IMG/VR virus record: IMGVR_UViG_3300021375_000017
Location: 28,002 to 92,001 of that record
Strand: one strand, 5' to 3'
DNA: 64,000 nucleotides
Origin: a virus
Shown here one piece after another: positions 6,073 to 22,854 of this stretch (positions are counted from its first letter, which is position 1; every line of letters starts with the position of its first letter). The translations under genes and the position numbers were made by a program. Below the pieces are notes generated by a model. That model was not told where the DNA came from and did not search any database. It saw only the letters and a program-made list of their open reading frames with translations.

Positions 6073-8609
6073 ATTTCTATACAAACATACAGATGATTGG
6101 AAATCAATTCCTTGTTCGTGGTTATGAGGACGGAAAGAGAGTTCACTATCGTGATACCAACTATCGTCCAACTCTGTATGTTAACTCTAAAGTCCCCACA
6201 AAATACAAAACTCTGGAAGGTGAATATGTTGAGGAAATTCAACCTGGAACAGTAAAGGACTGTAGAGACTTTTATAAGAAGTATGATGAGATCGAGAACT
6301 TCAAGATCTATGGTAATGAGAGATATATCTACCAATACATTTCTGACAAGTATCCTCAGGATGAGATAAAGTTTGACATCAAGAAGATGAGACTTTTGAC
6401 TATCGATATTGAGGTCTCATCAGAAGAGGGATTTCCTGACCCAGAACATTGTTCTGAGGAGATGTTGACCATCTCTATTCAGGATTATGCAACTAAGAAA
6501 ATTACAACTTGGGGCAGAAAACCATATACCCCTAGTCAGGACAATGTGACCTATCATTATTATCCTGAAGAAAGAGAAATGCTTGGTGCATTCATTGATT
6601 GGTGGATGAATGACTATCCTGATGTTGTGACTGGGTGGAATACCCGTCTGTACGACATCCCATATATCTGTGGAAGGATCGATAGGGTTCTGGGTGAGAG
6701 GGCCCTTAGGAATCTGTCTCCATGGGGTCTAGCGACCAAGAGAGAGACTTGGATCAATGGCCGTATGTTTTATATCTACGATATTGGTGGTATCACTGAC
6801 CTAGACTATCTGGAGTTGTATAAGAAGTTTACTTATGTGAATCGTGAGTCTTACCGACTGGACTTCATTGCAGAGGTTGAACTTGGTCAAAAGAAATTAG
6901 ACCACTCTGAGTTTGATACATTCAAAGACTTCTATACTGGTGATTGGAAAAAGTTTGTAGATTACAACATCGTTGACGTGGAACTTGTTGACCGTATGGA
7001 AGACAAGATGAAACTGATTGAGTTGGTTATCACCATGGCATACGATGGTAAGGTAAACTTTGGTGACCCAATGTTCCAAGTTAGATTGTGGGACACCATT
7101 ATCTACAACTATTTGAAGAAGAGGAATATTGTTATTCCTCCAAGGATCAATACTGATAAGAGTGAAAAGTTTGCTGGGGCCTATGTAAAGGAACCCAAAC
7201 CAGGTGTATATGATTGGGTTGTAAGTTTTGACTTGAACTCACTTTATCCGCATTTAATTATGCAATACAATATCTCACCTGAGACACTTCAGGAAGAGAA
7301 GCACCCATCAGTTACCATTCAAAAGATTCTTGATGAGAAACTTGATTTTCAGATGTATAAGGACTATGCGGTCTGTGCCAATGGTGCAATGTACCGTAAA
7401 GATGTGAAAGGTTTCCTACCTGAACTGATGGAGAAGATGTATGCTGAACGTAAGGCATTCAAGAAGGAGATGTTGAAGTCTAAACAGAAACTGGTTGACA
7501 TTGAATCAAAACTGAAGACCAATAAGGATCCAGTTCTCCGTAGACAGAGAGAACAAACCATCAAAGATATTGCTAAGTTCAATAACTTTCAGATGGTGAG
7601 AAAGATTTGTTTGAACTCTGCCTACGGTGCAATTGGTAATGCATACTTTAGATATTTCAAACTTGCCAATGCAGAAGCGATTACGATGTCAGGTCAGACA
7701 TCTATTCGTTGGATTGAAAATCATATGAATGAATATCTAAATAACTTACTTTCAACAGAAGATGTAGATTATGTCATCGCATCTGACACCGATTCAATCT
7801 ATCTTAACTTTGGACCTATTGTTGATAAATTTCTTGGTGATAAAGTTAACGATACGAGCAAGGTTGTTTCTATCATTGACAAAGTCTGTCAAGAGAAACT
7901 GGAACCGTTCATCGAAACATCTTATCAAAATCTTGCGACGTATGTAAACGCATACGATCAGAAGATGCAGATGAAACGGGAGAACATTGCAGACCGTGGA
8001 ATTTGGACTGCAAAGAAGAGATACATTCTCAATGTATGGGATAGTGAAGGTGTTAGGTATGAAGATCCTAAACTTAAGATCATGGGTATTGAGGCAGTCA
8101 AGTCATCCACTCCAGCACCCTGTAGGAGTATGATTAAGGATGCTCTCAAACTAATGATGAATGGAACAGAAGATGATGTGATTGAGTATATTGATAAGTG
8201 TAGAAGTGACTTTAAGAAACTTCCCATTGAAGCTATTTCTTTCCCTAGATCTGTTTCTGATGCCCAGAAGTATAAGGCACATGCAACGATCTACTCAAAG
8301 GGAACTCCTATTCATTGTCGTGGTGCCCTATTGTTCAATCACTACATAAAAGAAAAGAAGTTAACAAACAAATATTCACTTATCAATAACGGTGAAAAGA
8401 TTAAATTTTGTTATCTTAAAAAACCAAATATCATCCATGAGAATGTGATCTCATTTATTTCAGAGTTTCCAACAGAGTTGGGACTTGACCAATATGTGGA
8501 TTATGACTTACAATTTGAAAAGGCATTCTTAGAACCTCTCAAGGTCATTCTTGATGCCATTGGATGGAATGTAACTAAGATAAATACTTTAGAAAGTTTT
8601 TTTATGTAA
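6069..8609 (+). CDS. gp43: DNA polymerase, family B
   Basis: DIEV exonuclease I, SFDLNSLYP, K...NSAYG, ASDTDS. Confidence 0.98.
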   Translation: MNFYTNIQMIGNQFLVRGYEDGKRVHYRDTNYRPTLYVNSKVPTKYKTLEGEYVEEIQPGTVKDCRDFYKKYDEIENFKIYGNERYIYQYISDKYPQDEIKFDIKKMRLLTIDIEVSSEEGFPDPEHCSEEMLTISIQDYATKKITTWGRKPYTPSQDNVTYHYYPEEREMLGAFIDWWMNDYPDVVTGWNTRLYDIPYICGRIDRVLGERALRNLSPWGLATKRETWINGRMFYIYDIGGITDLDYLELYKKFTYVNRESYRLDFIAEVELGQKKLDHSEFDTFKDFYTGDWKKFVDYNIVDVELVDRMEDKMKLIELVITMAYDGKVNFGDPMFQVRLWDTIIYNYLKKRNIVIPPRINTDKSEKFAGAYVKEPKPGVYDWVVSFDLNSLYPHLIMQYNISPETLQEEKHPSVTIQKILDEKLDFQMYKDYAVCANGAMYRKDVKGFLPELMEKMYAERKAFKKEMLKSKQKLVDIESKLKTNKDPVLRRQREQTIKDIAKFNNFQMVRKICLNSAYGAIGNAYFRYFKLANAEAITMSGQTSIRWIENHMNEYLNNLLSTEDVDYVIASDTDSIYLNFGPIVDKFLGDKVNDTSKVVSIIDKVCQEKLEPFIETSYQNLATYVNAYDQKMQMKRENIADRGIWTAKKRYILNVWDSEGVRYEDPKLKIMGIEAVKSSTPAPCRSMIKDALKLMMNGTEDDVIEYIDKCRSDFKKLPIEAISFPRSVSDAQKYKAHATIYSKGTPIHCRGALLFNHYIKEKKLTNKYSLINNGEKIKFCYLKKPNIIHENVISFISEFPTELGLDQYVDYDLQFEKAFLEPLKVILDAIGWNVTKINTLESFFM

Positions 8610-9299: not shown

Positions 9300-10216
9300 T
9301 GGACTTTTTATCAGATATTGTAAAAGAGATTGGAGATGACTTTACCAAACTTGCTGCCGACATCGATGACACTGAGACATATGTGGACACAGGTTCGTTC
9401 GTTCTTAACGCTCTTGTATCTGGGTCTATCCGTGGTGGTGTATCTGGGAATAAAATTACTGCAATTGCTGGCGAAAGTTCTACTGGAAAGACTTTCTTTT
9501 CACTCGCAGTGGTCAAGAACTTCTTGGATACTAATCCCGATGCATATTGCCTTTATTTTGATACTGAGGCAGCAGTTAATAAGTCACTACTAGTAAGTCG
9601 TGGCATTGATCTGAATCGACTAGTTGTTGTTAATGTCGTTACCATTGAGGAGTTTAGGAGTAAGGCTCTCAAGGCGGTAGACATGTATTCAAAAAAACCT
9701 GAAGATGAACGTAAACCTTGTATGTTTGTGTTAGATTCTTTAGGAATGCTTTCTACAGAGAAAGAAATCACTGATGCCCTCAATGAGAAACTTGTCCGTG
9801 ATATGACAAAATCTCAGTTGATTAAAGGGGCTTTCAGAATGTTGACTCTTAAATTGGGTCAAGCCAAAATACCAATGATTGTAACCAATCACACCTATGA
9901 TGTCATCGGAGCTTATGTTCCTACAAAGGAAATGGGTGGGGGTTGTTTAGTTGCGGGAACTAAGATACAAACAGAAAATGGTTCTATTCCTATTGAATCT
10001 ATTCAAGTTGGTGACAAAGTGAGAACTATGTTTGGTTATTCATCAGTTACTGACACTTTCCATTTCACCGATAAAGATGTTTATGAATTGGAATTGGAAG
10101 ATGGAGAAACTATTAGATGTTCTGGCGAACATAAGTTTTTAGTAGATACTGGAGATGGTTATGAATGGAAATCCGTTACTGAGTTATTACCTTCAGATAC
10201 TATCAAATCTATGTGA
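9299..10216 (+). CDS. uvsX: UvsX recombinase N-half fused to split intein N-fragment (IntN 9944-10213, 90 aa)
   Basis: Walker A GESSTGKT; ...KEMGGG|CLVAGTKI (block A) and CSGEHKF (block B); TAATG overlap at start. Confidence 0.93.
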   Translation: MDFLSDIVKEIGDDFTKLAADIDDTETYVDTGSFVLNALVSGSIRGGVSGNKITAIAGESSTGKTFFSLAVVKNFLDTNPDAYCLYFDTEAAVNKSLLVSRGIDLNRLVVVNVVTIEEFRSKALKAVDMYSKKPEDERKPCMFVLDSLGMLSTEKEITDALNEKLVRDMTKSQLIKGAFRMLTLKLGQAKIPMIVTNHTYDVIGAYVPTKEMGGGCLVAGTKIQTENGSIPIESIQVGDKVRTMFGYSSVTDTFHFTDKDVYELELEDGETIRCSGEHKFLVDTGDGYEWKSVTELLPSDTIKSM

Positions 10217-10221
10217 AAGTT

Positions 10222-10258
10222 GGTTCTGGACTAAATAATAATAATTGAGTCCAGAACC
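10222..10258 (+). promoter_or_regulatory. hairpin over the endonuclease translation start, with a late-promoter-like core in the loop
   Basis: GGTTCTGGACT...AGTCCAGAACC immediately before TTG; TAAATA inside. Confidence 0.6.
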
Positions 10259-10930
10259 TTGTTTTTATCCAATAAGTATACTGATTGTTATTTCCGTATT
10301 ATTAATAAGGCAAATCTTAGGAAACTTCCTCAAATTACTGAATGTCATCATATTATACCTAAATCATTAGGTGGAGGAGAAGAACCAGAAAACAAAGTAT
10401 ATCTAACACCAAGAGAACATTTTGTCTGTCATCATCTTCTTCTGAAGATGTTAGAGGGAAAATCAAAACAGAAAATGTGTTATGCTTTTTATAGAATGAA
10501 CTCCAGTAATAATGGAGTTAGGTGTGAAAATCTCAATTCTTATGATAGAATAAGAGAACACTACTCTCATCTCACTTCTGGAGTAAATAACCCATTTTAT
10601 GGGAAGGGGCATTTTGGATATTCTAACCCAATGTCCAAACCTGAGGTTCGGGAGAAACATAAACAAATAGTTTCTTCACCTGAACATAGAAAGATGATGA
10701 GTGATAAAATGTCTGGTGAAAATAATCCATTTTACGGAAGAACTCATTCAGATGAAACCAAGAAACATCTTTCTGAGTTGGCGTCTCAGAGAACAGGTGA
10801 AAACTCTTCCCGTTATGGGAAGAAACACAGACGAGTTGTTTGTGAACACTGCCAAAAAGAAATTACTTACCCAATGTATAAGAGGTGGCATGGAACGAAT
10901 TGTAAAGTCTATCAAGAAAATAAAGACTGA
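10259..10930 (+). mobile_element. HNH homing endonuclease with NUMOD3 repeats, inside split uvsX
   Basis: HHIIPKSLGG...N...LTPREH..CH; NNPFYG..HS.ETK repeats. Confidence 0.88.
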
Positions 10931-11366
10931 GGATGTTTATGACATCACAGTTGAAGGAGAACATCATTATATTCTTGGTAATGGTGTCGTGTCTCACAAT
11001 TCTGGCCTTAAGTATGCAGCGTCTACAATCATCTATCTCTCAAAGAAAAAGGAAAAGGATGGAACAGAAGTGGTCGGCAATCTTATCAAGGCTAAGACTG
11101 CTAAGTCGCGTTTAAGTAAAGAGAATAAAGATGTTACTATACGTCTCTATTACGATGAACGTGGTCTTGATAGGTATTACGGTCTCTTAGAACTTGGAGA
11201 ACTTGGTGGACTATGGAAAAACGTTGCAGGACGTTATGAGATGGATGGTAAGAAAGTCTATGCTAAGGCCATCCTGAAAGAACCTGAGACTTATTTTACA
11301 CCTGAAGTGATGGAAAAACTAGATGAAATCGCAAAAGAACAATTCTCTTATGGTTCGTCATTATGA
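10890..11366 (+). CDS. uvsX: split intein C-fragment (37 aa, 10890-11000) fused to UvsX C-half
   Basis: VYDITVEGEHHYILGNGVVSHN|SGLKYAAS (blocks F/G, Ser+1); continues KSR, LYYDERGLDRYYGL. Confidence 0.92.
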   Translation: MERIVKSIKKIKTEDVYDITVEGEHHYILGNGVVSHNSGLKYAASTIIYLSKKKEKDGTEVVGNLIKAKTAKSRLSKENKDVTIRLYYDERGLDRYYGLLELGELGGLWKNVAGRYEMDGKKVYAKAILKEPETYFTPEVMEKLDEIAKEQFSYGSSL

Positions 11367-11865
11367 TGTTGTTCCAGAGTCATACTGTAAAAAACTAATT
11401 GAGATATTTGAAAACTCCTCTAATCAGGAGTTTATCAATAATGATCACAAACCATGTTTCAGTCAGGTTAATCTGAGTAAAGAAAATCCTGAAATGGTCA
11501 GACAAATCATTCCCATTATTAAAGGTGTACATACTCTGTATAAGAAGGAAACCAAATCTTATTTTCTTCCAGAGTTAAATGCCCTTGAAGAACTTAGGAT
11601 TAAAAGATACCTTCCTAATGGTGAGGAAAGGTTTGATGAACATGTAGACGTGACTGACTATCCCTCATCAAGAAGGTCAGTTGCATTTTTATTTTATCTG
11701 AATACTAATGATGGTAATACAGTTTTTTCTAAACAGAAGTTGAACATTAAACCAAAGTGTGGTAGGGTAGTAGTATTCCCTCCTACATGGGAATATCCTC
11801 ATGCAAGACTCCCCCCAACAACTAGTAACAAATACATCATGAGTACATATATTCACTATGGATAA
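11350..11865 (+). CDS. 2OG-Fe(II) oxygenase
   Basis: HVD...FYLN...G.VVVFPP.W.YPH...KYI. Confidence 0.85.
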   Translation: MVRHYDVVPESYCKKLIEIFENSSNQEFINNDHKPCFSQVNLSKENPEMVRQIIPIIKGVHTLYKKETKSYFLPELNALEELRIKRYLPNGEERFDEHVDVTDYPSSRRSVAFLFYLNTNDGNTVFSKQKLNIKPKCGRVVVFPPTWEYPHARLPPTTSNKYIMSTYIHYG

Positions 11866-12490
11866 GGTTGAATTTTTAGTTCTGAAAAATCTAATACACA
11901 ATGAAAAATACTTGAGAAAGGTTCTTCCATTCATTAAAGAAGAATATTTTGATGATACTAAATATAAGGTAATCTTCGACGAGATCTCTACCTTTACTGC
12001 TGAGTATAACGAACTCCCTACAAAAGAGATTCTCAATATTGAGATTGAAAAGAGAAGAGATATTAATGAGGACTCTTATAAACAGATTTCTCATGTAGTT
12101 AATTGTCTTGAGGACGATGTTGTAGAGTTTGATTGGTTGGTTAACACTACTGAGAAGTGGTGTCGTGACCGTGCCATTTATCTTGCCTTGATTGAATCCA
12201 TTCAGATTGCTGATGGAGGAGATGTCAAGAAGGCACCAGATGCCATTCCATCTATTCTGTCTGATGCTCTGGCAGTTAGTTTTGACAACCATGTAGGACA
12301 TGATTACCTTGAAGATTATGAATCACGATACGAGTCTTATCACAGGAAGGAGGAGAGAATTGAATTCGATCTCGACTATTTTAACAAAATCACGAAAGGT
12401 GGGCTCCCTAACAAAACTCTTAACATCGCACTTGCTGGTTGCGTTCATCCAGAAACTAAAGTTAAAATTAGATTTAAGAAGATTTCTTGA
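11858..12490 (+). CDS. gp41: gp41 replicative helicase N-half fused to a 16-aa intein N-fragment (12440-12487)
   Basis: TKGGLPNKTLNIALAG|CVHPETKVKIRFKKIS*; break lies inside Walker A. Confidence 0.92.
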   Translation: MDKVEFLVLKNLIHNEKYLRKVLPFIKEEYFDDTKYKVIFDEISTFTAEYNELPTKEILNIEIEKRRDINEDSYKQISHVVNCLEDDVVEFDWLVNTTEKWCRDRAIYLALIESIQIADGGDVKKAPDAIPSILSDALAVSFDNHVGHDYLEDYESRYESYHRKEERIEFDLDYFNKITKGGLPNKTLNIALAGCVHPETKVKIRFKKIS

Positions 12491-13142
12491 TTATGGAATT
12501 TGGTGCTGGTTCTCCAGTTCCAAATTTCCATCCTTCGTTTAATTTAGTATCAATATTTTCTGGTAGTATTCTTTTCCATCCCTTTGTTCCTGGTAAGTAC
12601 ATTACCTTTTTTCCTTTATGTGCTTTACCTCCAAGAGATGCTCTTTGTTGTCTTCCTTGATTAGACGCCCAGTAATTGAATTCTTTAGATGCTCTTTGCT
12701 TTCCTCCAAAAGATGCTCTTTCCTTTCTACCTTCTTCTGTACTCCAGTAATAAAAATTTTTAATGTTATCTTTTAAATATTCTTGTTTTTGAGTTTCCAT
12801 TCCTTTGACCATCCATTCTTTTCTTTCATCTATTGGAACAGAAAAGAAACCAATCTTATTATCTCTACAAAATTCCCCAATTATTTTTCTATATTGTGGA
12901 GATAAGTTTGCTCCTAACATTTTCATAGACCTTAAGTCATTTGGATTTTTGTATATTTTCCATAACAAATAATGTGCTATGATATGTTCTCTAACATTTA
13001 GGTATGTAAGGTTACAATCATCATCTGTTCCTCCCATATGTTTAGGAACAACATGATGTTCGTGTAGTCCTGAATATTTTTTATAATCTTCTTTTCTTGA
13101 CTTATTGCCTTTGCATAAGTTAGAATAGATACGATCAAACAT
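12474..13142 (-). mobile_element. HNH homing endonuclease on the opposite strand, inside split gp41
   Basis: HEHHVVPKHMGG...NLTYL.VREH..AH; minus-strand TATAAATA at 13165-13172. Confidence 0.85.
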
Positions 13143-13176
13143 TCCCTGTCCCTGCTACTGCTATTATTTATATAAA

Positions 13177-14352
13177 ATGTGGATTGAAAAAGAAACAACA
13201 ATTGCTGAAATCAAAACATTACTTGATAATGGATATGAAGTAGAAGTTGATTCTCCCGATGGATATGTTCCAGTTAATTTCTTTATTAACAAAGGAATGT
13301 ATGATGAATATGTTTTGAGAATCGATGGCATTGATGAACTTATAAGATGCAATGCCAATCATTTATTTCAGACATCTTTGGGGTGGATGAGTGCATCGCA
13401 TCTTTATAAAAAATATAAAATAATGCATTTTTTAACCGAGAGTGGTTATAAACTTGGTAGTGTATTTAAAACAGGAAATCAAATACCTATTGTTGATATT
13501 AATGTAAATCATCCAAATCACAGGTATTATACTAATGGAGTTTCTTCTCATAATACTGGCGTCGGGAAATCTCTATTCATGTGCCATGTGGCTAGCTCCG
13601 TCTTGCTCCAAGGGAGGAACGTTCTCTACATTACAATGGAGATGGCAGAAGAGCGCATTGCTGAAAGAATTGATGCGAACCTCTTGAATGTAAATATCCA
13701 GGAAATTGTTGACCTTCCAAAACAAATGTTTGAAACAAAGGTTACAAACCTGGCACAAAAGACTCAAGGTCACCTAATTATTAAGGAGTATCCTACTGCC
13801 TCTGCTCATGCTGGACACTTCAAATCACTTCTTAATGAACTTGCACTTAAGAAGTCATTTCGACCTGATATTATTTTCATTGATTACCTTAATATATGTT
13901 CTTCCGAAAGATATCGCGGAAATAGCACTGTCAATTCATATTCATATATTAAAGCAATTGCTGAAGAACTTAGAGGACTTGCTGTTGAAGCAAACGTCCC
14001 TATCATATCTGCCACTCAGACCACTCGTTCTGGTTATGGTAGCTCTGACGTTGAGCTTACTGACACTAGTGAGTCCTTTGGTCTCCCTGCTACTGCTGAT
14101 CTTATGTTTGCCCTTATTTCGACTGAAGAGTTGGAATCGTTGGGACAAATACTTGTAAAGCAATTGAAGAATAGGTATAATGATTACTCTGTCCATAGAC
14201 GTTTTGTTGTTGGTATTGATCGTGCCAAGATGAGATTATATGATTGTGAACAGTCTGCACAGGATGACCTTCTTGACAATGGTAAGGAAGAAGAGTACAA
14301 TAATGATGAACAAGAAAAACCTAAAAAATCATTTAGTGGATTTAAATTTTAA
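13177..14352 (+). CDS. gp41: split intein C-fragment (126 aa, 13177-13554) fused to gp41 helicase C-half
   Basis: CNANHLF block B, IVDINV...YYTNGVSSHN|TGVGKS (Thr+1); IDYLN, SATQT, KNRY helicase motifs. Confidence 0.93.
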   Translation: MWIEKETTIAEIKTLLDNGYEVEVDSPDGYVPVNFFINKGMYDEYVLRIDGIDELIRCNANHLFQTSLGWMSASHLYKKYKIMHFLTESGYKLGSVFKTGNQIPIVDINVNHPNHRYYTNGVSSHNTGVGKSLFMCHVASSVLLQGRNVLYITMEMAEERIAERIDANLLNVNIQEIVDLPKQMFETKVTNLAQKTQGHLIIKEYPTASAHAGHFKSLLNELALKKSFRPDIIFIDYLNICSSERYRGNSTVNSYSYIKAIAEELRGLAVEANVPIISATQTTRSGYGSSDVELTDTSESFGLPATADLMFALISTEELESLGQILVKQLKNRYNDYSVHRRFVVGIDRAKMRLYDCEQSAQDDLLDNGKEEEYNNDEQEKPKKSFSGFKF

Positions 14353-14756
14353 TGACTGTAAATACTGAAGCATATCTTGAATTTGTCAATGCCGTCACCT
14401 CACAACAAAGTAAAGATCACGAAGCATTCCTCTATCGTCTTCAAGAATTGGAAGGCCAAGAGTTTCCTACCGAGCGACTGTTTACTGCTGCTGTAGGAAT
14501 GTCTGCTGAGGCAGGTGAGTTTACTGAAGTTGTCAAGAAGATCGTCTTCCAAGGTAAACCAGTAAATGAAGAAAACTTATTTCATCTGAAACGTGAACTT
14601 GGTGATATTATGTGGTATGTTGCTCAAGCGTGTATGGGTCTTGATACGACCATTGATGAAATTATTGAGATGAATGTTGAGAAACTGAAGTCTCGTTATC
14701 CTGGTGGAGAATTTTCCGTAAAACATTCCGAAGTCCGAAAGGAAGGTGATGTATGA
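14352..14756 (+). CDS. mazG: MazG-like NTP pyrophosphohydrolase
   Basis: EAGEF.E..KK...ELGDIMWY. Confidence 0.92.
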   Translation: MTVNTEAYLEFVNAVTSQQSKDHEAFLYRLQELEGQEFPTERLFTAAVGMSAEAGEFTEVVKKIVFQGKPVNEENLFHLKRELGDIMWYVAQACMGLDTTIDEIIEMNVEKLKSRYPGGEFSVKHSEVRKEGDV

Positions 14757-15448
14757 CCTACGACTTCTCATTTGCACATTCACCTGAAGGATTTGATAAT
14801 CATATCAACGATAGTATTCGTGGATATTCAAACCTCCTAGAAGATACTGTATCGTTCTCTCGATACTTTGTGGAGGATCATACTAAAGTTGTTGATGTTG
14901 GATGTTCAACTGGTAAACTTACCAAGATGATTATTGACAACAATCCTAATCGTCAGTACGCACATTATGTGGGTGTAGAACTTGCTGGTAGTTTTTATGA
15001 TGATCTTGAGGAACGTCATATAGAGGTTCGTAAAGAATACCCTGGTGCATTGTTAGAATGGGTTCGTGGTAATGTCACTAACTATGAGTTCAAGAACTGT
15101 TCTCTAGTAACATCACTGTTTACTCTACAGTTTATGCCCAAGACTACCAGACAAGATACGATCAATAAGATCTATAATGGTCTCAATGAAGGTGGTGCAT
15201 TTATCTTTGCTGAGAAGTTGATGTGTGAGAATGCATTCTTTCAAGAACTTCTTACCTTTAATCATTATGATTACAAGAGAAAGACTTTCAGTGCAGAACA
15301 AATCATGGATAAGGAGAAACAACTTCGTGATATGTTGAAACCTAATACATGGTCTGAACTAAGAGATATGGTGATGACTGCGGGGTTCAAAGACTGTCAG
15401 ATCTTCTGGAGAAACCATCAGTTCGTTGGAGTTATTGCAATTAAGTAA
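14753..15448 (+). CDS. cmoA: CmoA-like carboxy-SAM synthase (class I SAM fold)
   Basis: F.F.....FD.HI..SI.GYSN, DVGCSTG, FTLQF, GG.FI.AEK, typical of CmoA. Confidence 0.75.
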   Translation: MTYDFSFAHSPEGFDNHINDSIRGYSNLLEDTVSFSRYFVEDHTKVVDVGCSTGKLTKMIIDNNPNRQYAHYVGVELAGSFYDDLEERHIEVRKEYPGALLEWVRGNVTNYEFKNCSLVTSLFTLQFMPKTTRQDTINKIYNGLNEGGAFIFAEKLMCENAFFQELLTFNHYDYKRKTFSAEQIMDKEKQLRDMLKPNTWSELRDMVMTAGFKDCQIFWRNHQFVGVIAIK

Positions 15449-16845
15449 TGTGTGGAATTATTGGTGGATTTGATATTCCACAAATTGAAAAAGGTTTGAA
15501 CTCTATTATTCATAGGGGACCAGATAACCAACAGATTGTCCAAATGGAGAACATCTATTTTGGACATGTTCGTTTGTCTATTATTGATACTAGTAATGAG
15601 TCAAATCAGCCATTTGTTTATGGTGACACCACCATGATCTTCAATGGTACCATTTGGAACTATCGTGAGTTAAGAGAAGAATTGAATATTGAAACAAAGA
15701 CTTCAGGTGACACTGAGGTACTTTGTGCTATCTTGGATAGGTATGGTATTGAAGGATTGAATAAAGTTCAAGGAATGTTTGCCATTGCATTTACTCAAGG
15801 AGACGGTTCTATTACTATTGTGAGAGACCGTCATGGTGAAGTTCCTCTTCATTACTCTCTCCTTACAGGTCTCTTTCCATCATTCTCTTTCTGTTCAGAG
15901 ATCAAAGGTCTTTTGGCAATGGGGGAGATTGGTAAAACAGTTAAAATGTTAGAACCCGGATCATTTATTAAGGTTTCCTCTGATTACTCTGTAAAAGAGG
16001 GGTATTGGTATAACGTCAGAGAACATATCGAAGATACTTCTACATGGAACTTTAATGATTCTAAAGCGATGGTTTATAGAAACATTGTGATGGGTTCATT
16101 TGAAAGAACTGTTGCCGATGTTCCTGTTGCATGCTTACTCTCTGGTGGTATTGATTCTGCTATCACAACTCTCATTGCATCTAAACACATCCCAAACTTG
16201 GTGACATATACTGCAGTCCATGATGAGAACTCAAAAGATTTAAAGTCTGCTAGAAAAGTTGCTAAATATTTGGGAGTTGAACTCCGAGAAGTTATAGTTC
16301 AACCACCTACCATCGATGATGTTAATGATGTTATCAATACCATTGAGATGCCATATAAGGCCCAAGTAGAGATTGGATATCCTTGTATTCAACTTGCAAA
16401 AAGAATCCATGAAGATGGTTTTAAGGTGATTATGTCAGGTGAAGGTAGTGACGAACTCTGGGCATCCTATGGTATGAGTTACCATGGTATTAAGGATAAA
16501 GGTTGGACTGACTATAGAATAGGACTCTTTGGTTCACAACATCGTAAAAATTTCACAAGATGTAATAAGATTTTTATGAAGTATGGTATTGAATGTAGAC
16601 TACCTTTTTTAAACACTCAGTTAGTAGAGACTGCACTTGGTCTCAGTCAAGATACTGTTTGGGACGGTAAAGCTAGACCTAAAGCAATTCTCCAAGAGGC
16701 TTTCAGAGGTCAACTCCCAGATGATATTGTTGATAGAAAGAAGGTAGCATTTCAGGATGGTATGGGAATCAAATCTCTTTACGAAGACATTGTAGATTCT
16801 CCAAAAACATATTACACTAAACACTATAAGAAACAGTTCTCATGA
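15448..16845 (+). CDS. asparagine synthetase B-like glutamine amidotransferase
   Basis: N-terminal MCGI, HRGPD, RLSIID, SGDTE, LSGGIDS PP-loop, SGEGSDE, RLPFL. Confidence 0.9.
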   Translation: MCGIIGGFDIPQIEKGLNSIIHRGPDNQQIVQMENIYFGHVRLSIIDTSNESNQPFVYGDTTMIFNGTIWNYRELREELNIETKTSGDTEVLCAILDRYGIEGLNKVQGMFAIAFTQGDGSITIVRDRHGEVPLHYSLLTGLFPSFSFCSEIKGLLAMGEIGKTVKMLEPGSFIKVSSDYSVKEGYWYNVREHIEDTSTWNFNDSKAMVYRNIVMGSFERTVADVPVACLLSGGIDSAITTLIASKHIPNLVTYTAVHDENSKDLKSARKVAKYLGVELREVIVQPPTIDDVNDVINTIEMPYKAQVEIGYPCIQLAKRIHEDGFKVIMSGEGSDELWASYGMSYHGIKDKGWTDYRIGLFGSQHRKNFTRCNKIFMKYGIECRLPFLNTQLVETALGLSQDTVWDGKARPKAILQEAFRGQLPDDIVDRKKVAFQDGMGIKSLYEDIVDSPKTYYTKHYKKQFS

Positions 16846-18011
16846 AACTCCCCTACAAATTACAAGATGTTTATGACGGTGAAGCTCAACAGAAGTTCAC
16901 TGTCATTTCTACGTTCGCTGGTGGAGGTGGTTCGTCCACTGGTTATCGTCTTGCAGGTGGTAAGATCCTCTGTATCAATGAGTTTGTAGAAGAGGCAAGA
17001 AATACTTATTCCGAGAATTATCCATCTACTACTATTTTACCTGGTGATATTAAGGAGTTGACAGGTAAAGACTTCCTTGAAGCCACTGGTCTCAAACAAG
17101 GAGAACTTGATATTCTTGATGGTTCACCACCATGTTCTGCATTCTCTGTTGCAGGTTCAATGTGTCATAACATCTATGAAGAAGAGAGGGTAGACTTATT
17201 TGGAAACACCTACACCACTAGAGTTAGTGGTAAACATTCTGATGGTTGGGGAAAGACAAAAACTTATTCTGACGGTAAACAAGTTGAAAATATTGAAGAT
17301 TTGTTTTTTGAATATATCCGTATAGCAAAAGACATTCAACCAAAAGTAATTGTTGCAGAGAATGTCAAAGGATTGACTGTTGGTGAAGCTAAAACATACT
17401 ATGCAAAGATTACAAATGCATTTACAGAAATTGGATACCTAGTCACTTCTAAAGTAATGAAAGCATCAAATCATGGTGTGGGACAAGGACGGGAGAGACT
17501 TATCTTTATTGGAGTTCGTGAAGATATTGCAGATAAGATCGGAATGTTGATTACTGGAGTCAATAGTATATTTCCCAGACCTTCAAAAGAATCAACTACA
17601 ATTTCTGATATCATTGATGGTGTTGAGAATAATTCTGAAGATGTTAAAACTCTTACTGAAAAGTTGGTAAGTAGTAACATATACAAAAATGTTATCAGTA
17701 AGATGCCCAAGAATCCAGATAAAGTTTTGACTGGTATGGACTATCACCCTAAAGGACATTGTTTTAATACAAAGAGAGTCTCTTTAAAAAAACCATCTCC
17801 AACTCTTACTGCTAGTGGTGGTTTGATTCATTGGAACGAAGATCGTCCATTGACTGTTCCAGAACTTAAACGTATTCAATCACTTCCTGATGACTTTGTT
17901 TTGACTGGTACATATTCTCAACAGTCTGAAAGAGTGGGTAGAATGGTTCCACCTCTGATGATGAAAGCAATAGCAGAAAACATTTACAAAGAAGTCCTAT
18001 CTAAACTATAG
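16842..18011 (+). CDS. DNA cytosine-C5 methyltransferase-family enzyme, predicted carboxymethyltransferase
   Basis: FAGGGG (I), GSPPC (IV), ENV (VI), Q.RER (VIII), RIQSLPDDF (IX); motif X reads VGRMVPP. Confidence 0.85.
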   Translation: MKLPYKLQDVYDGEAQQKFTVISTFAGGGGSSTGYRLAGGKILCINEFVEEARNTYSENYPSTTILPGDIKELTGKDFLEATGLKQGELDILDGSPPCSAFSVAGSMCHNIYEEERVDLFGNTYTTRVSGKHSDGWGKTKTYSDGKQVENIEDLFFEYIRIAKDIQPKVIVAENVKGLTVGEAKTYYAKITNAFTEIGYLVTSKVMKASNHGVGQGRERLIFIGVREDIADKIGMLITGVNSIFPRPSKESTTISDIIDGVENNSEDVKTLTEKLVSSNIYKNVISKMPKNPDKVLTGMDYHPKGHCFNTKRVSLKKPSPTLTASGGLIHWNEDRPLTVPELKRIQSLPDDFVLTGTYSQQSERVGRMVPPLMMKAIAENIYKEVLSKL

Positions 18012-18022
18012 AAACTCTTCAA

Positions 18023-18030
18023 TATAAATA
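18023..18030 (+). promoter_or_regulatory. T4-type late promoter
   Basis: TATAAATA. Confidence 0.7.
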
Positions 18031-18060
18031 ATGATAATAGAAGTTGTTAGAACTAAAACC

Positions 18061-19533
18061 ATGTCGGATATGAGTAATCTGTACAGAGCTTATTCAGCTG
18101 TACACAGTTCTGAAGTTAGTGATCAGTTGAGTGAGTCTAGAGATCTCATTTCTGATATGCAGTTCAACCAACTGAACTCCTCTGATCTTCAGGAAGTTGC
18201 TGAAGAGATTCTGGAAGAGATGTTTGAACTTAGTCTTGATATTGAACAATCTTCTGATATCATTGCTGATATTTTGAGTGAGGCACTGAAGACCAGTCAG
18301 TCTGACCTCAAGTCACAAAAGATTGACTATATTGGAGAAGCATTTGATGCTGCTCTTGAGAATGGTCATACTGTAGAAAGATTCCTTGGTTATAGAAGGT
18401 CTAAGAAAGTTCAGGAGAACTTCCACAATACTTCCAACGAAGATCGTAGTAGTAAGAGACTTCACGAAGCCCTGATTGCTCAAGAGAGAAAGAACATCAA
18501 AGAAGGTATTCTTTCCCTGATTGAGAAGAAGACAAAAGATTCTTCTTACCTTGAGACCAACATGAAGAAGAGAGCGGAGAATAATGAGAAGGCCCGTAAG
18601 GACATGGAGAAGATGGGTTCAATGAAGAACCCCCAACTTGAAGAGTTCTCTCAAATCAGAAAAGATTGGAGTAGTGCCTACTCTTCCATCTATGAGAAGA
18701 TGGATCCTGTTGGTCAGGAAGATGGTGACATCGATAATGATGGTGATGAGGATAAGTCTGATAAGTATCTTGCTAATCGTCGTAAGGCCATTGGTAAGTC
18801 TATGGGTAAGAAAGGTAAGTGTGAGAAGTGTGGTAAAGATCCCTGTGAGTGTGATAAGAAAGAAGTAGAAGAAGGTTACAAGGAACTTCCTAAGAACAAG
18901 ATGTTCCGTAAGGCAGGTAACCTAGGACGTGAAGCGATCAGTACTCCTATTGATCCTGAGAAGCGTCAAAAGGCATATGATCGTTCTAAGAAAATCGTTA
19001 AGACTCTCAACAAAGCAAACGAAGAAGTCCAACAGGTTGATGAAGCAATCACCAGCGAAAAGGGTAAAGAAAAAATGAAGAAGATGATTGATGCTCGCAC
19101 CACTGATTCTGGTAGAGCAAAGCCAGGTAAAGGTCAAAACGTTAAAGACATTAGGCACATTGGTCGTGCTAATGTTGATGGGTATGGTGGTACACCTTCC
19201 AATCTAAAGGTTGCCAAGAACCCAGTAAAATCTAACTTCACTGGTCTCAATAGTGGAACCGGCAACAAAGCAGCAAAAAGAGCAGCAGCACTAAAGAAAG
19301 AAGAAGTAACATTCTCTGAAGCTGAACTGAAAGCCATTCAGACAAAGGTTGATGCATGGGATGTTGAAGAAGGTTATCAGCGTAATCCCGAGAAGGGAGA
19401 GGCTCAAGCAAGAAAGTCTGAAACTTCTGGTCAAAAGACAGAGAGAAATGTCCGTGATAGACTGAAGACTATGGATCCTAAGAAGGCTGAAGCAATGAAG
19501 AAACAGATGAGAGCTGTTGGTTTAAGTGTTTGA
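18061..19533 (+). CDS. large charged hypothetical protein, possibly virion-associated
   Basis: Long ORF after a late promoter; DGDIDNDGD motif; K/E-rich. Confidence 0.7.
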   Translation: MSDMSNLYRAYSAVHSSEVSDQLSESRDLISDMQFNQLNSSDLQEVAEEILEEMFELSLDIEQSSDIIADILSEALKTSQSDLKSQKIDYIGEAFDAALENGHTVERFLGYRRSKKVQENFHNTSNEDRSSKRLHEALIAQERKNIKEGILSLIEKKTKDSSYLETNMKKRAENNEKARKDMEKMGSMKNPQLEEFSQIRKDWSSAYSSIYEKMDPVGQEDGDIDNDGDEDKSDKYLANRRKAIGKSMGKKGKCEKCGKDPCECDKKEVEEGYKELPKNKMFRKAGNLGREAISTPIDPEKRQKAYDRSKKIVKTLNKANEEVQQVDEAITSEKGKEKMKKMIDARTTDSGRAKPGKGQNVKDIRHIGRANVDGYGGTPSNLKVAKNPVKSNFTGLNSGTGNKAAKRAAALKKEEVTFSEAELKAIQTKVDAWDVEEGYQRNPEKGEAQARKSETSGQKTERNVRDRLKTMDPKKAEAMKKQMRAVGLSV

Positions 19534-19548
19534 TATCTCGGAGTCCCG

Positions 19549-21582
19549 ATGAAAGACGTATTTAAATTTCTAAAGGACTCTAGAAAACTCCTGGAGTCCA
19601 CAACCTCTGAGAGGGCGGCTGAACTTGGTTACGAATATCGTGCCCGTGGAGTTTGGGGTGACCCAAGAACCAATAAGAGATATAGGACTGATGGTAATCG
19701 TTTCGTAGAGATTGACGAACCTAAAAAACAAGAAAGAGATCCTAAGGAAAAGGAACCCAAAACACTTTCCCAATTCAAGAAAGATGTTCCTCAACAGAAA
19801 CAACCTGAAGAGGAAGTACCTTCTGTTGCAAATCAGATGGATAGAGTTGTTCCTGGTGGACCAACTGAAACTGCAATAAGTTCAGGTGACCAGAAGACTG
19901 TTGAAAAACAACTCTCTCGTGGTAGAGAGAATGTTCAAAGTCCTGAGAGAAAGAAGCAAGTTGCTCAACAAGCATCTGATATTATTGCACAGTTACAAGC
20001 AGAGAAAGAGGCCGAAGAGAAGGCTGAACTGGAGGCAGAAGCACAGGCTCAGGCAGAATTAGAAAATCAAGAACCAGTAGAACCAGAAAAAGGTCCAGAG
20101 GATTTTAGGACTATTGATGATGTAGTTGCAGAGAAAGAAGAAGAGATTGACTATAATGATGATGAAGAAGCCTTTGAACAAGAGTATGAAGCATATGAAA
20201 AAGAAGCAGCAGAGATGATGAAGTCTCTGACTGACCGTCAAAAAAAGATGATGGAGAAAAAGTTTGCTTCTTTCACAGAAAGTTTGAAGAAGATTCCTTC
20301 TGCAACAGATAAGAAATCATTCCTTCAGTCAATGGCTCATGCAAAGTCATTTGAAGGTCGTGTGAATGCTGGTGCTGGTAAGAATAACCTTGGTTATGCT
20401 GACATTCAGAACTTAATGGCCAATCGTGATCGTTTATTGGAAGGTTATGGTGATGGATCTCCAGAACAAATCAAAAAGTTTGTACAATCTGTAAGAGCTA
20501 TTAAGGTATCTGATGAATTTGTAGATGCTTCTTTTGAAGTTCTTCCTGATGCGTTCAAAAAATCACTAAGTGGTAAGGGTCAAGTAACAACTGACAAGTA
20601 TGTGTCTGACGATAAGGCACATAAAGATATGCATTATCTTGGTAGAAATGAAGATGGTACTGCCAGAAGAGGTCCTGCTAGTAATAAAGACAGAGCAAAG
20701 TTGATGTGGAGAATCTACCTAGAACAGGGTGGACGTGATGCATACACAGGTCTTCCTCTAGACCTCCAAGCCATGGACCTAGAACATGTTCGTGGGTTCA
20801 ACAATAAAGATGGTGGAAAACCTGGTAAGGTAGAGTGGGAACAAAGAGAGAATGATGATAACATGACTCTTATTAATTCCAATGTCAACCAACAGAAGGT
20901 AGACCTTTCAATGGAGGAATTCTTTAAGAAGAAGGTTGACCCTAATAAGGACAAAGGAGAAGCTGACTTTGGTGGTATTGAAAAACTATTTGACAAACAA
21001 AACCAGATTGGTACTGTTGGAGATGAGTTAGCACAAACACTTCTTGGTGAAGGTGGTAAGGGATTGGCCGAGGGTGTATCAAGAGAAATTCTTGATGAAC
21101 ACTTTGCATCTGATGACAATAGTTACAATAGTCTGAGAGAAGAGTTCCGTAAGGTAGCAACTACACCAAAAGATAAGGCAAAGGCTGCTGGTATGAAGTC
21201 TAAACTTGGTAAGACACTTCTTAAAGCAACTGGTCTTGCTCGTGGTATTACTGATAAGAGTGGTAGAAGAACTGTTGCACTACAAGAAAATGTATATCGT
21301 GGTTTCTTGAAGTCCATGGCAAATGCAAAACCTGCAGACCGTCAAAAATATATGGATGGTTGGGCAGAGGCTATCAAACAGGGTAATGAGGAGAGAGAAC
21401 CAAAGGCAGTTAACCGTAAGTTACTTGAACTTGGTTTGATTGATGAGGACATCCTGAATGATAAGAAATTAGGTAAAGTTTTTAAAGAAGAATACGATGA
21501 AACTAGGAGAACATCTAAAACATATGGTAGGATGTTTATATCCAAGTACCACAAGGATAATAAATACTTCTATGGAATCTGA
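19549..21582 (+). CDS. large protein with a C-terminal HNH-like nuclease motif
   Basis: YLEQGGRDAYTG...DLEHV...N..LINSNVN. Confidence 0.6.
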   Translation: MKDVFKFLKDSRKLLESTTSERAAELGYEYRARGVWGDPRTNKRYRTDGNRFVEIDEPKKQERDPKEKEPKTLSQFKKDVPQQKQPEEEVPSVANQMDRVVPGGPTETAISSGDQKTVEKQLSRGRENVQSPERKKQVAQQASDIIAQLQAEKEAEEKAELEAEAQAQAELENQEPVEPEKGPEDFRTIDDVVAEKEEEIDYNDDEEAFEQEYEAYEKEAAEMMKSLTDRQKKMMEKKFASFTESLKKIPSATDKKSFLQSMAHAKSFEGRVNAGAGKNNLGYADIQNLMANRDRLLEGYGDGSPEQIKKFVQSVRAIKVSDEFVDASFEVLPDAFKKSLSGKGQVTTDKYVSDDKAHKDMHYLGRNEDGTARRGPASNKDRAKLMWRIYLEQGGRDAYTGLPLDLQAMDLEHVRGFNNKDGGKPGKVEWEQRENDDNMTLINSNVNQQKVDLSMEEFFKKKVDPNKDKGEADFGGIEKLFDKQNQIGTVGDELAQTLLGEGGKGLAEGVSREILDEHFASDDNSYNSLREEFRKVATTPKDKAKAAGMKSKLGKTLLKATGLARGITDKSGRRTVALQENVYRGFLKSMANAKPADRQKYMDGWAEAIKQGNEEREPKAVNRKLLELGLIDEDILNDKKLGKVFKEEYDETRRTSKTYGRMFISKYHKDNKYFYGI

Positions 21583-21588
21583 TAAAAG

Positions 21589-22854
21589 ATGAAAAGTTTC
21601 TTTAGATTTATTACAGAAGCAAGAAGTACACCTGTATCTGAGAAGGCCAAGAAGCTTGGTTTAGTCAGTGATGGTAGTGGTGGATGGAAAGATAGAGCAG
21701 GTAAGACTGTTGCGAGAACAGTTGGTGGTGAACTTAAGTTTACTGATAGAGGAACATCATCAGTTCAGTCTGATGGTGGTCAACAACCCGTAGCACAACA
21801 GAGACAAGAAGTTCCTCAACAAAAGAGAGCGTCAACTGAAGAACCTACTGAGAGAAGAAGTGGTGGTGATGATGAGGAAGAAGGTGGAGATGGTAAAAGG
21901 ACTGGAGAAAATGCAACCCTAGTATTTGGTAGATTTAATCCCCCAACTGTAGGACATAAGAAACTTCTTGATGCAGCTCTTCAGATTTCAGGTGATGGTG
22001 ACCTGAGAATTTATCCTTCCAGATCGGTTGATCCTAAGAAAAATCCTTTAGAGACTGGTCAGAAGACAGAACTCATGAAGAAGATGTTCCCCGATCATAG
22101 TGATAATATTATTAATGATGAGAGTATCAAAACTATATTTGATGCATTGAAGTTGGCAAGTAATGATGGATTCTCAAATGTAAAAATTGTTGTAGGTTCT
22201 GATCGTGTTGCTGAGTTTGACAATCTAGCTCAGAAATACAATGGTAAACTATATGACTTTGAAGAGATTGAAACTATCTCTGCTGGAGAAAGAGATGAAG
22301 ATGCAGAAGGTGTTTCTGGAATGTCTGCCTCTAAGATGAGAAAGGCTGCAACAGAGAATGACTTTGAGACATTCAGAAAAGGTATTCCTGATACTTTGGA
22401 TGATACTGCAACAAAACAGATGATGAATACTGTTCGTAAAGCAATGCAGGTTCAGACAGAATCTTGGAGTCTATGGGAAATTGCTCCTAAGTTTGACTGG
22501 AAGAACTTGAGAGAGAACTATGTAACTGGTAAGATCTTTAAGATTAATCAGTTGGTAGAGAATTTGAATACAGGATTTGTAGGTAAGATTGTTCGTAGAG
22601 GAACTAACTATCTTATTTGTGTGACAGAAGATAATATTATGTTTAAGTCCTGGATCCGTGATCTCCGTGAATATGAAGAGAAGAAACCTGATACCCGTGT
22701 TGGAAGTCCTGGTTACTTTAAGTATGCTGCCAAGATGACACCTGGTTTTGATAAAGGAGATAAGACCAATCTTCAACCTGGCGGAAAACCTTACAAAGGC
22801 CCTAAGACAAATATCAAGGAATTCATAAATAGATACAAAAGTAGAAATCTCTGA
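21589..22854 (+). CDS. cytidylyltransferase-like nucleotidyltransferase
   Basis: FGRFNPPTVGH, VVGSDR, MSASKMR. Confidence 0.85.
   Translation: MKSFFRFITEARSTPVSEKAKKLGLVSDGSGGWKDRAGKTVARTVGGELKFTDRGTSSVQSDGGQQPVAQQRQEVPQQKRASTEEPTERRSGGDDEEEGGDGKRTGENATLVFGRFNPPTVGHKKLLDAALQISGDGDLRIYPSRSVDPKKNPLETGQKTELMKKMFPDHSDNIINDESIKTIFDALKLASNDGFSNVKIVVGSDRVAEFDNLAQKYNGKLYDFEEIETISAGERDEDAEGVSGMSASKMRKAATENDFETFRKGIPDTLDDTATKQMMNTVRKAMQVQTESWSLWEIAPKFDWKNLRENYVTGKIFKINQLVENLNTGFVGKIVRRGTNYLICVTEDNIMFKSWIRDLREYEEKKPDTRVGSPGYFKYAAKMTPGFDKGDKTNLQPGGKPYKGPKTNIKEFINRYKSRNL

Follow-up and report, generated by a model that had tools for sequence, protein, structure and literature searches.

Positions 14753-18011 of the window, a 64,000-nucleotide stretch of viral DNA from IMG/VR record IMGVR_UViG_3300021375_000017, hold three overlapping genes: cmoA, encoding a homologue of carboxy-S-adenosylmethionine (Cx-SAM) synthase, a gene for an AsnB-like glutamine amidotransferase, and cmoX, encoding a homologue of DNA cytosine C5-methyltransferases (C5-MTases). 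Together they are predicted to carry out a post-replicative cytosine hypermodification in which Cx-SAM synthesis, C5-carboxymethylation and glutamine-dependent amidation would yield 5-carbamoylmethylcytosine, a reading to which we assign a probability of about 0.7. A first-pass annotation had proposed this chemistry for a three-gene set coupled by overlapping stop and start codons and chained to gp41 and mazG. The open reading frames (ORFs) and junctions are exactly as it described, and profile matches agree with its assignment of a CmoA-like protein, a complete AsnB-like enzyme (with Cys2 and SGGIDS located) and a C5-MTase. The cmoB gene that it reported missing from the window is absent even from the whole 92-kb record (CmoB, PF08003). 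The proposed chemistry is supported by 85% and 80% orthology to assayed enzymes and by gene linkage in 46 of 47 informative loci, and its product is predicted.

Relationship to the S-B43 system

In December 2025, Yang et al. (Nat Commun) described a related pathway in Synechococcus phage S-B43 (PMC12783734). This is the report to which the first-pass annotation had pointed, of phage 5-carboxymethylcytosine with a different amide ligase. S-B43 CmoA makes Cx-SAM, and SpCmoX (PDB 8YF3), a C5-MTase homologue with an SPPC motif, places the carboxymethyl group on C5 of cytosines in GpC; its Arg350 contacts the cofactor carboxylate, and it accepts only Cx-SAM, not S-adenosylmethionine (SAM) (PMC12783734). 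SpCmoY, a small, glycine-specific asparagine-synthetase-like ligase, then couples glycine to the carboxylate of 5-carboxymethylcytosine (5cxmC) in DNA (PMC12783734). Liquid chromatography-mass spectrometry showed these activities in vitro and in E. coli as well as in virion DNA, where only the glycine amide was found, at ~10% of cytosines (PMC12783734). The same paper names a cluster of glutamine-hydrolysing ligases (representative A0A7T0Q3R0) and proposes ammonia as their substrate, although no soluble enzyme was obtained (PMC12783734). The glutamine-amidotransferase version, suggested earlier as the possibly new part, had thus already been proposed there; the cassette type, including its glutamine-using ligase, is described and interpreted in the literature (PMC12783734). 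The window AsnB-like protein has the make-up by which that cluster is defined, namely a glutamine-hydrolysing and an AMP-forming ligase domain and, as gene neighbours, CmoA and a CmoX that has the cofactor-binding arginine.

The window CmoA is 85% identical to S-B43 CmoA (SpCmoA) over all 231 residues, without gaps. Its best profile is the CmoA equivalog TIGR00740 (E 1.6e-31, 109.8 bits, residues 11-231), whose curated cut-off of 193.3 is missed both by the window protein and by the verified SpCmoA (115.6 bits). The best PDB match is E. coli CmoA (4GEK, 2.3e-26). Chorismate mutase (PF01817) was not found in the 92-kb record; the phage would therefore lack its own prephenate supply, and prephenate would be host-derived.

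The window C5-MTase matches DNA_methylase (PF00145, 2e-54), is 80% identical to SpCmoX and aligns with PDB 8YF3 over its full length (E 3.6e-194). Both published hallmarks of CmoX, the SPPC motif and an arginine in place of the motif-X asparagine, are present, as they are in every one of the 72 unique CmoX sequences encoded next to an AsnB-like gene. At this level of identity to SpCmoX, the window CmoX probably also targets GpC and uses Cx-SAM only. Were its specificity that of S-B43, the cytosines in GpC, 12% of those in the window, would be candidate sites.

The two cassettes share their position (gp41 - mazG - cmoA - slot - cmoX) and their logic, a carboxyl handle being installed and then capped by an ATP-dependent amide bond. 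They differ in the slot. SpCmoY is a 271-aa single-domain glycine ligase that leaves an anionic glycine amide, whereas the window enzyme has 465 aa and two domains and is predicted to leave a neutral primary amide. The two are 21% identical, and only over the PP-loop domain (residues 227-450). Given this low identity and the additional N-terminal glutaminase domain, the AsnB-like protein is no CmoY orthologue, although it occupies the same slot and probably has a capping role likewise. In Synechococcus phages S-CRM01 and RN05-S the slot is empty: cmoA is directly followed by cmoX, with no ligase between (L139:3001-4838 and L140:3001-4840, respectively). If no ligase is encoded in another part of their genomes, the DNA of these two phages may contain 5-carboxymethylcytosine that is left uncapped.

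The AsnB-like enzyme

The central protein of the cassette matches GATase_6/7 and Asn_synthase (PF00733, 8.5e-42) as well as the AsnB model NF006949 (4e-79). It falls below the equivalog cut-offs for AsnB, widely for NF006949 (266.6 against 499 bits) and narrowly for TIGR01536 (263.7 against 267.1 bits). An N-terminal nucleophile (Ntn) glutaminase domain (residues ~2-190, starting MCGIIGG) precedes a PP-loop synthetase domain (~200-465). The AlphaFold (AF2) model is of high confidence (predicted local distance difference test score 93.7, predicted template-modelling score 0.92) and superposes with both domains on E. coli AsnB (1CT9) and human ASNS (6GQ3) at template-modelling scores of 0.86-0.88. 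After these, the model is structurally most similar to TsnB9, beta-lactam synthetase and carbapenam synthetase.

Residues were compared between 77 unique clade members and E. coli AsnB, numbered from Cys-1. In the glutaminase domain, all 77 have R49, N74, G75 and D98 and 75 have C1, which is replaced by an alignment gap in the other two, probably through the choice of start site. E348 (76/77), D351, K429 and K449 are likewise invariant or nearly so. By contrast, in place of T321, T322, R324, K376 and D384 of AsnB the clade has A, Q, E, L and N, respectively, with Q, E and N in every member and A and L in 74/77. The window residues at the last four of these positions are Q306, E308, L360 and N368. 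R324 and K376 we take to be synthetase-site residues, following older mutagenesis work. For two others the human enzyme is informative: the pocket that receives the alpha-amino group of aspartate includes D400 of ASNS (= D384), and T336, which we equate with T322, is essential and conserved across all kingdoms (PMC6748925). The protein also stops at AsnB position 506 of 553, so that the last ~47 residues are missing. Because the catalytic residues are kept while these five are replaced, the ammonia-producing and adenylating machinery appears intact and part of the acyl-substrate site appears remodelled, as read from the aligned residues.

Linkage to cmoA and cmoX

Two scans of IMG/VR and one of prokaryotic genomes gave 113 unique loci (L numbers) with an AsnB-like gene at least 40% identical; 47 of these were informative, having the AsnB-like gene in full length with 2.2 kb or more of sequence on each side. 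The gene-neighbourhood search that had been suggested for the triad in other phages was run on them, and cmoA and cmoX both stand beside the AsnB-like gene in 46 of the 47. Four gene orders occur: cmoX - AsnB-like gene - cmoA, often with parB in front (22 loci), cmoA - AsnB-like gene - cmoX as in the window (21 loci), AsnB-like gene - cmoX - cmoA (2 loci) and AsnB-like gene - cmoA - cmoX (1 locus). The remaining locus, L081, has the AsnB-like gene alone. Because the same triad recurs in ~100 independent contigs, the arrangement is not due to chance. The triad has no additional tailoring gene as a conserved neighbour in the four gene orders.

Distant bacterial AsnB homologues (L126-L136) have neither cmoA nor cmoX alongside, and in the tree the cmoA/cmoX-linked AsnB-like proteins are monophyletic, on a long branch from AsnB. 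Clade members come from cyanophage contigs, from Streptomyces phage TurkishDelight and from chromosomes of Nonomuraea, Streptosporangium, Streptomyces and a Gemmataceae metagenome-assembled genome. The chromosomal or large-contig cassettes (L117-L125: six Nonomuraea species, Streptosporangium, Streptomyces sp. NRRL S-455 and the Gemmataceae genome) have the order parB-cmoX-amidotransferase-cmoA. They are presumably prophages, and such lysogens might offer a cultivable source of modified DNA.

Variation of CmoX was also seen among related cassettes. In L044 (6389-7516), and also in L042, L045-L047, L054 and L055, a second, translationally coupled CmoX paralogue lies between the AsnB-like gene and cmoX. 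It has 375 aa, is 69% identical to the window CmoX and carries SPPC and GRMVPP. Because its divergence is greatest in the variable region, this paralogue probably has a second, different sequence specificity. Two further loci can be set against the window: the AsnB-like protein of L003 is 99% identical to that of the window and its CmoX only 81%, without the ~17-aa insertion that the window CmoX carries, whereas in L004 both proteins are 99-100% identical. This mosaic suggests recombination between cassette variants. The dinucleotides GpC (observed/expected 0.64) and CpG (0.45) are depleted in the window, and GG and CC are not.

Proposed pathway

In the proposed scheme, CmoA would convert SAM and host prephenate to carboxy-SAM. 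CmoX would then flip out a cytosine, probably in GpC, and Cys98 would attack C6 so that the carboxymethyl group is passed to C5; Arg367 would hold the Cx-SAM carboxylate, and the product would be 5cxmC. These two steps lean on close orthology to the assayed S-B43 enzymes. In the third step, the PP-loop domain of the AsnB-fold enzyme would adenylate the 5cxmC carboxylate, while glutamine would be hydrolysed at the Cys1 Ntn site and the ammonia channelled to the acyl-adenylate. The resulting neutral 5-carbamoylmethylcytosine would shield the DNA from host nucleases, the AsnB-fold enzyme standing in for the glycine ligase CmoY that fills the same slot in S-B43. This amidation is predicted from the enzyme's domains, from its conserved catalytic and altered acyl-substrate residues, and from the strict linkage of its gene. 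Since fold, glutaminase, PP-loop and E348/D351/K429/K449 are all shared, the acyl-adenylate and channelled-ammonia mechanism should match that of AsnB.

The same gene set and end product would result if amidation preceded transfer, with the AsnB-like enzyme amidating carboxy-SAM or a free nucleotide and CmoX transferring a ready carbamoylmethyl group, and enzymes of the AsnB fold do usually take small-molecule carboxylates (AsnB, beta-lactam synthetase, carbapenam synthetase, TsnB9). An amide cofactor would, however, leave the arginine for the Cx-SAM carboxylate without a partner, and because this arginine is universally kept (72/72 neighbouring CmoX), amidation at the cofactor level is disfavoured. 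It is also at odds with the properties of SpCmoX, 80% identical, which takes only Cx-SAM, and of SpCmoY, which acts on 5cxmC in DNA (PMC12783734); it was rejected as quite improbable. The enzyme might instead act on 5cxmC in DNA and leave a group other than a simple amide, such as a nitrile (by a QueC-like second ATP-dependent dehydration), the amide of another amine or a further tailored product. Weak PP-loop matches to QueC (PF06508, 1.5e-4), the variable glutamine-pocket residue E76 and the diversity of amide caps in CmoA/CmoX systems (PMC12783734) are in line with such an outcome. Yet the QueC match covers only residues 229-285, the PP-loop, whereas the AsnB match is full length over both domains; the conserved glutaminase residues (C1 in 75/77, the others invariant) point to ammonia as the nucleophile, and the triad conserves no additional tailoring gene over its four gene orders. 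An end group other than a plain amide is accordingly improbable.

If the central gene encoded a plain asparagine synthetase, serving the phage as an auxiliary metabolic gene and having nothing to do with DNA modification, this would explain why the best family models are those of AsnB (NF006949 4e-79; TIGR01536 just under its cut-off) and why fold and catalytic machinery are complete. It would leave unexplained the 46/47 linkage to cmoA and cmoX, which holds over four gene orders and over hosts as distant as those of cyanophages and actinophages, the replacement of T322, R324 and D384 in every member and of T321 and K376 in 74/77, the end of the protein at AsnB position 506/553 and its place in the exact CmoY slot of S-B43. 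Asparagine synthesis as an auxiliary metabolic function was rejected on the linkage and the remodelled site, and is very improbable. Alternatively, the phage CmoA could serve tRNA modification at U34 (5-oxyacetyluridine, cmo5U) through a host CmoB, the MTase being a plain 5-methylcytosine methylase. CmoA is classically an enzyme of tRNA modification and the phage does have tRNA genes. These are Arg-TCT, Asn-GTT and Met-CAT, and none of them is known as a cmo5U substrate. CmoB is absent from the record, and the MTase has Arg for the motif-X Asn. Moreover, the 80% identical SpCmoX refuses SAM, and S-B43 virion DNA bears a carboxymethyl-derived base (PMC12783734). On the absence of CmoB from the record and the phage tRNA set, this role was rejected and is extremely improbable.

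Several points weigh against amidation of 5cxmC in DNA to 5-carbamoylmethylcytosine, the pathway preferred here. No paper reporting 5-carbamoylmethylcytosine in DNA was found in the literature searched, the chemistry of all window proteins is predicted, and the glutamine-type ligase of Yang et al. was insoluble (PMC12783734). E348 and D351, which contact the aspartate moiety in ASNS models, are kept in the clade, so the replaced residues alone are no proof of a changed substrate; the glutamine-pocket residue E76 is Thr in the window and T, E, A or C across the clade. The window CmoX differs from SpCmoX by its loop insertion, found also in the 99-100% identical CmoX of L004, L008-L011, L063 and L071 and missing in most other relatives, and its GpC specificity is predicted. 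Finally, one clade member belongs to L081, a phage whose 115-kb genome is complete and has terminal repeats, and in which cmoA and C5-MTase genes are both absent. In the region L081:4989-10297 its AsnB-like gene (48% identical) is next to a radical SAM protein gene (6815-8245) and not far from that of a thymidylate-synthase homologue (9641-10297), and the AsnB-like protein is nested inside the AsnB-like clade in the tree. Because this member lacks cmoA and a C5-MTase, an enzyme of the clade can serve another carboxylate or pathway; L081 may have a different base-modification route that ends in the same amidation.

Comparison with other systems

A named counterpart outside the cyanophages is gp123-125 of Streptomyces phage TurkishDelight, which has the same domain architecture and linkage to CmoA and an Arg-bearing CmoX. 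Its gp124 is 41% identical to the window AsnB-like protein and falls in the same monophyletic clade; it may correspond to A0A7T0Q3R0. The gene order differs (parB-cmoX-AsnB-like gene-cmoA, against cmoA-AsnB-like gene-cmoX in the window), as do host and phage type.

AsnB and ASNS (1CT9, 6GQ3) share with the window protein the two-domain fold, the Cys1 Ntn glutaminase, the SGGxDS PP-loop and residues E348, D351, K429 and K449. The window protein is set apart by its five replaced residues, its missing C-terminal ~47 residues, scores below the NCBIfam equivalog cut-offs and a gene context that points to a DNA-borne carboxylate instead of aspartate. Beta-lactam synthetase, carbapenam synthetase CarA and the hydroxyamidotransferase TsnB9 illustrate how readily the AsnB fold is retargeted to non-aspartate carboxylates. 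These act on small molecules, whereas the predicted substrate here is a base in duplex DNA.

The carbamoylmethyl group has parallels in other nucleic acids. Phage Mu Mom places the same (acetamide) group on phage DNA as an anti-restriction mark, but on adenine N6 and through a GNAT enzyme with Gly-tRNA as donor, and is chemically and evolutionarily unrelated (PMC13219725). From the tRNA cmo5U pathway (CmoA/CmoB) the window has borrowed CmoA and Cx-SAM; it lacks CmoB, and its predicted target is DNA cytosine. The RNA counterpart of a C5-carbamoylmethyl pyrimidine is 5-carbamoylmethyluridine (ncm5U) of tRNA, made by the Elongator pathway.

Genomic context

The window is the last 64 kb of the 92-kb record, whose CheckV completeness is ~48%. 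Its nearest nucleotide matches are Synechococcus myoviruses of the Kyanoviridae (RN05-S, RB11-B, S-B43, S-B05 and S-CRM01), which identifies the phage as a T4-like cyanophage; psbA is present. The cassette closes a chain of five plus-strand genes (13177-18011), each joined to the next by overlapping stop and start codons (Table 1). In S-B43, RN05-S and most related contigs, too, mazG and cmoA are syntenic neighbours. A promoter and terminator scan of 12500-19000 gave counts not above those of shuffled sequence and is therefore uninformative on operon boundaries.

Table 1. Positions of the cassette genes, their key residues and the gene junctions in the window
Feature	Position	Strand	Basis or remark
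gp41-type DnaB-like helicase, C-terminal part	13177..14352	+	PF03796 DnaB_C 9.6e-17; upstream end of chain, outside pathway
Junction gp41/mazG, TAATG	14350-14354	+	
MazG-like nucleotide pyrophosphohydrolase	14352..14756	+	PF03819 2e-08; phrog_229 3.6e-55
Junction mazG/cmoA, ATGA	14753-14756	+	
cmoA, predicted carboxy-SAM synthase (SAM + prephenate to Cx-SAM), 231 aa	14753..15448	+	TIGR00740 and SpCmoA orthology
Junction cmoA/AsnB-like gene, TAATG	15446-15450	+	
AsnB-fold glutamine amidotransferase, predicted 5cxmC-DNA amidotransferase, 465 aa	15448..16845	+	Profiles, AF2 model, gene linkage
Cys2 codon TGT, N-terminal glutaminase nucleophile once Met1 is removed	15451..15453	+	Cys in 75/77 unique clade members
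PP-loop SGGIDS, residues 232-237, ATP pyrophosphatase signature	16141..16158	+	S, G, G, D, S invariant in 77/77
Junction AsnB-like gene/cmoX, ATGA	16842-16845	+	
cmoX, predicted DNA cytosine C5-carboxymethyltransferase, 389 aa	16842..18011	+	80% identity to SpCmoX; PDB 8YF3
Motif IV SPPC, residues 95-98, catalytic Cys98	17124..17135	+	SpCmoX alignment; invariant in 72 unique neighbouring CmoX
~17-aa insertion after catalytic-loop Cys108, relative to SpCmoX	17166..17225	+	Alignment
Arg367 codon AGA, motif X VGRMVPP, = SpCmoX Arg350	17940..17942	+	Alignment; Arg in 72/72 unique neighbouring CmoX

Downstream of cmoX, three large ORFs (500, 677 and 421 aa) occupy 18031-22854, the last with a cytidylyltransferase-like domain (PF01467, phrog_395). 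Relatives retain some of this block downstream, and its first ORF is found in S-B43 as well. Upstream, the gp41 match in most relatives spans only residues 119-391 of the 391-aa ORF at 13177-14352. A 210-aa ORF (11858-12490) gives a weak, sub-threshold match to the DnaB N-terminal domain (E 0.0064; 17 bits against a cut-off of 23), and an antisense 222-aa ORF (12474-13142) lies between it and the gp41 C-terminal ORF. A 221-aa ORF (10701-11366) weakly matches an intein splicing domain (PF14890, 3.5e-06, below cut-off).

Implications

To the published account this analysis adds a residue-level signature of the ligase clade, a linkage statistic over four gene orders, the picture of a swapped slot in close cyanomyovirus relatives and the L081 exception. 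On balance we think it probable that the virion DNA carries 5-carbamoylmethylcytosine, a natural base so far unobserved, at ~1 cytosine in 10 (GpC), that the enzyme behind it is the first known for amidation of C5-carboxymethyl pyrimidines in a nucleic acid, and that genes are swapped in the cmoA-cmoX slot of close cyanomyoviruses, some having no cap, others a glycine or an ammonia cap or an additional CmoX paralogue. If true, 5-carbamoylmethylcytosine would be added to the natural DNA bases, and the AsnB fold would then include an enzyme directed at DNA, using channelled ammonia to amidate a base within the duplex. The TurkishDelight enzyme is the only named clade member in the phage collection. 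Because the window enzyme is only 41% identical to it and is flanked by near-copies of the well-behaved S-B43 CmoA and CmoX, it would be a practical alternative for the insoluble published ligase. Relatives that share a near-identical backbone and are uncapped or have a glycine or ammonia cap would form a natural system for asking which host defences each cap evades.

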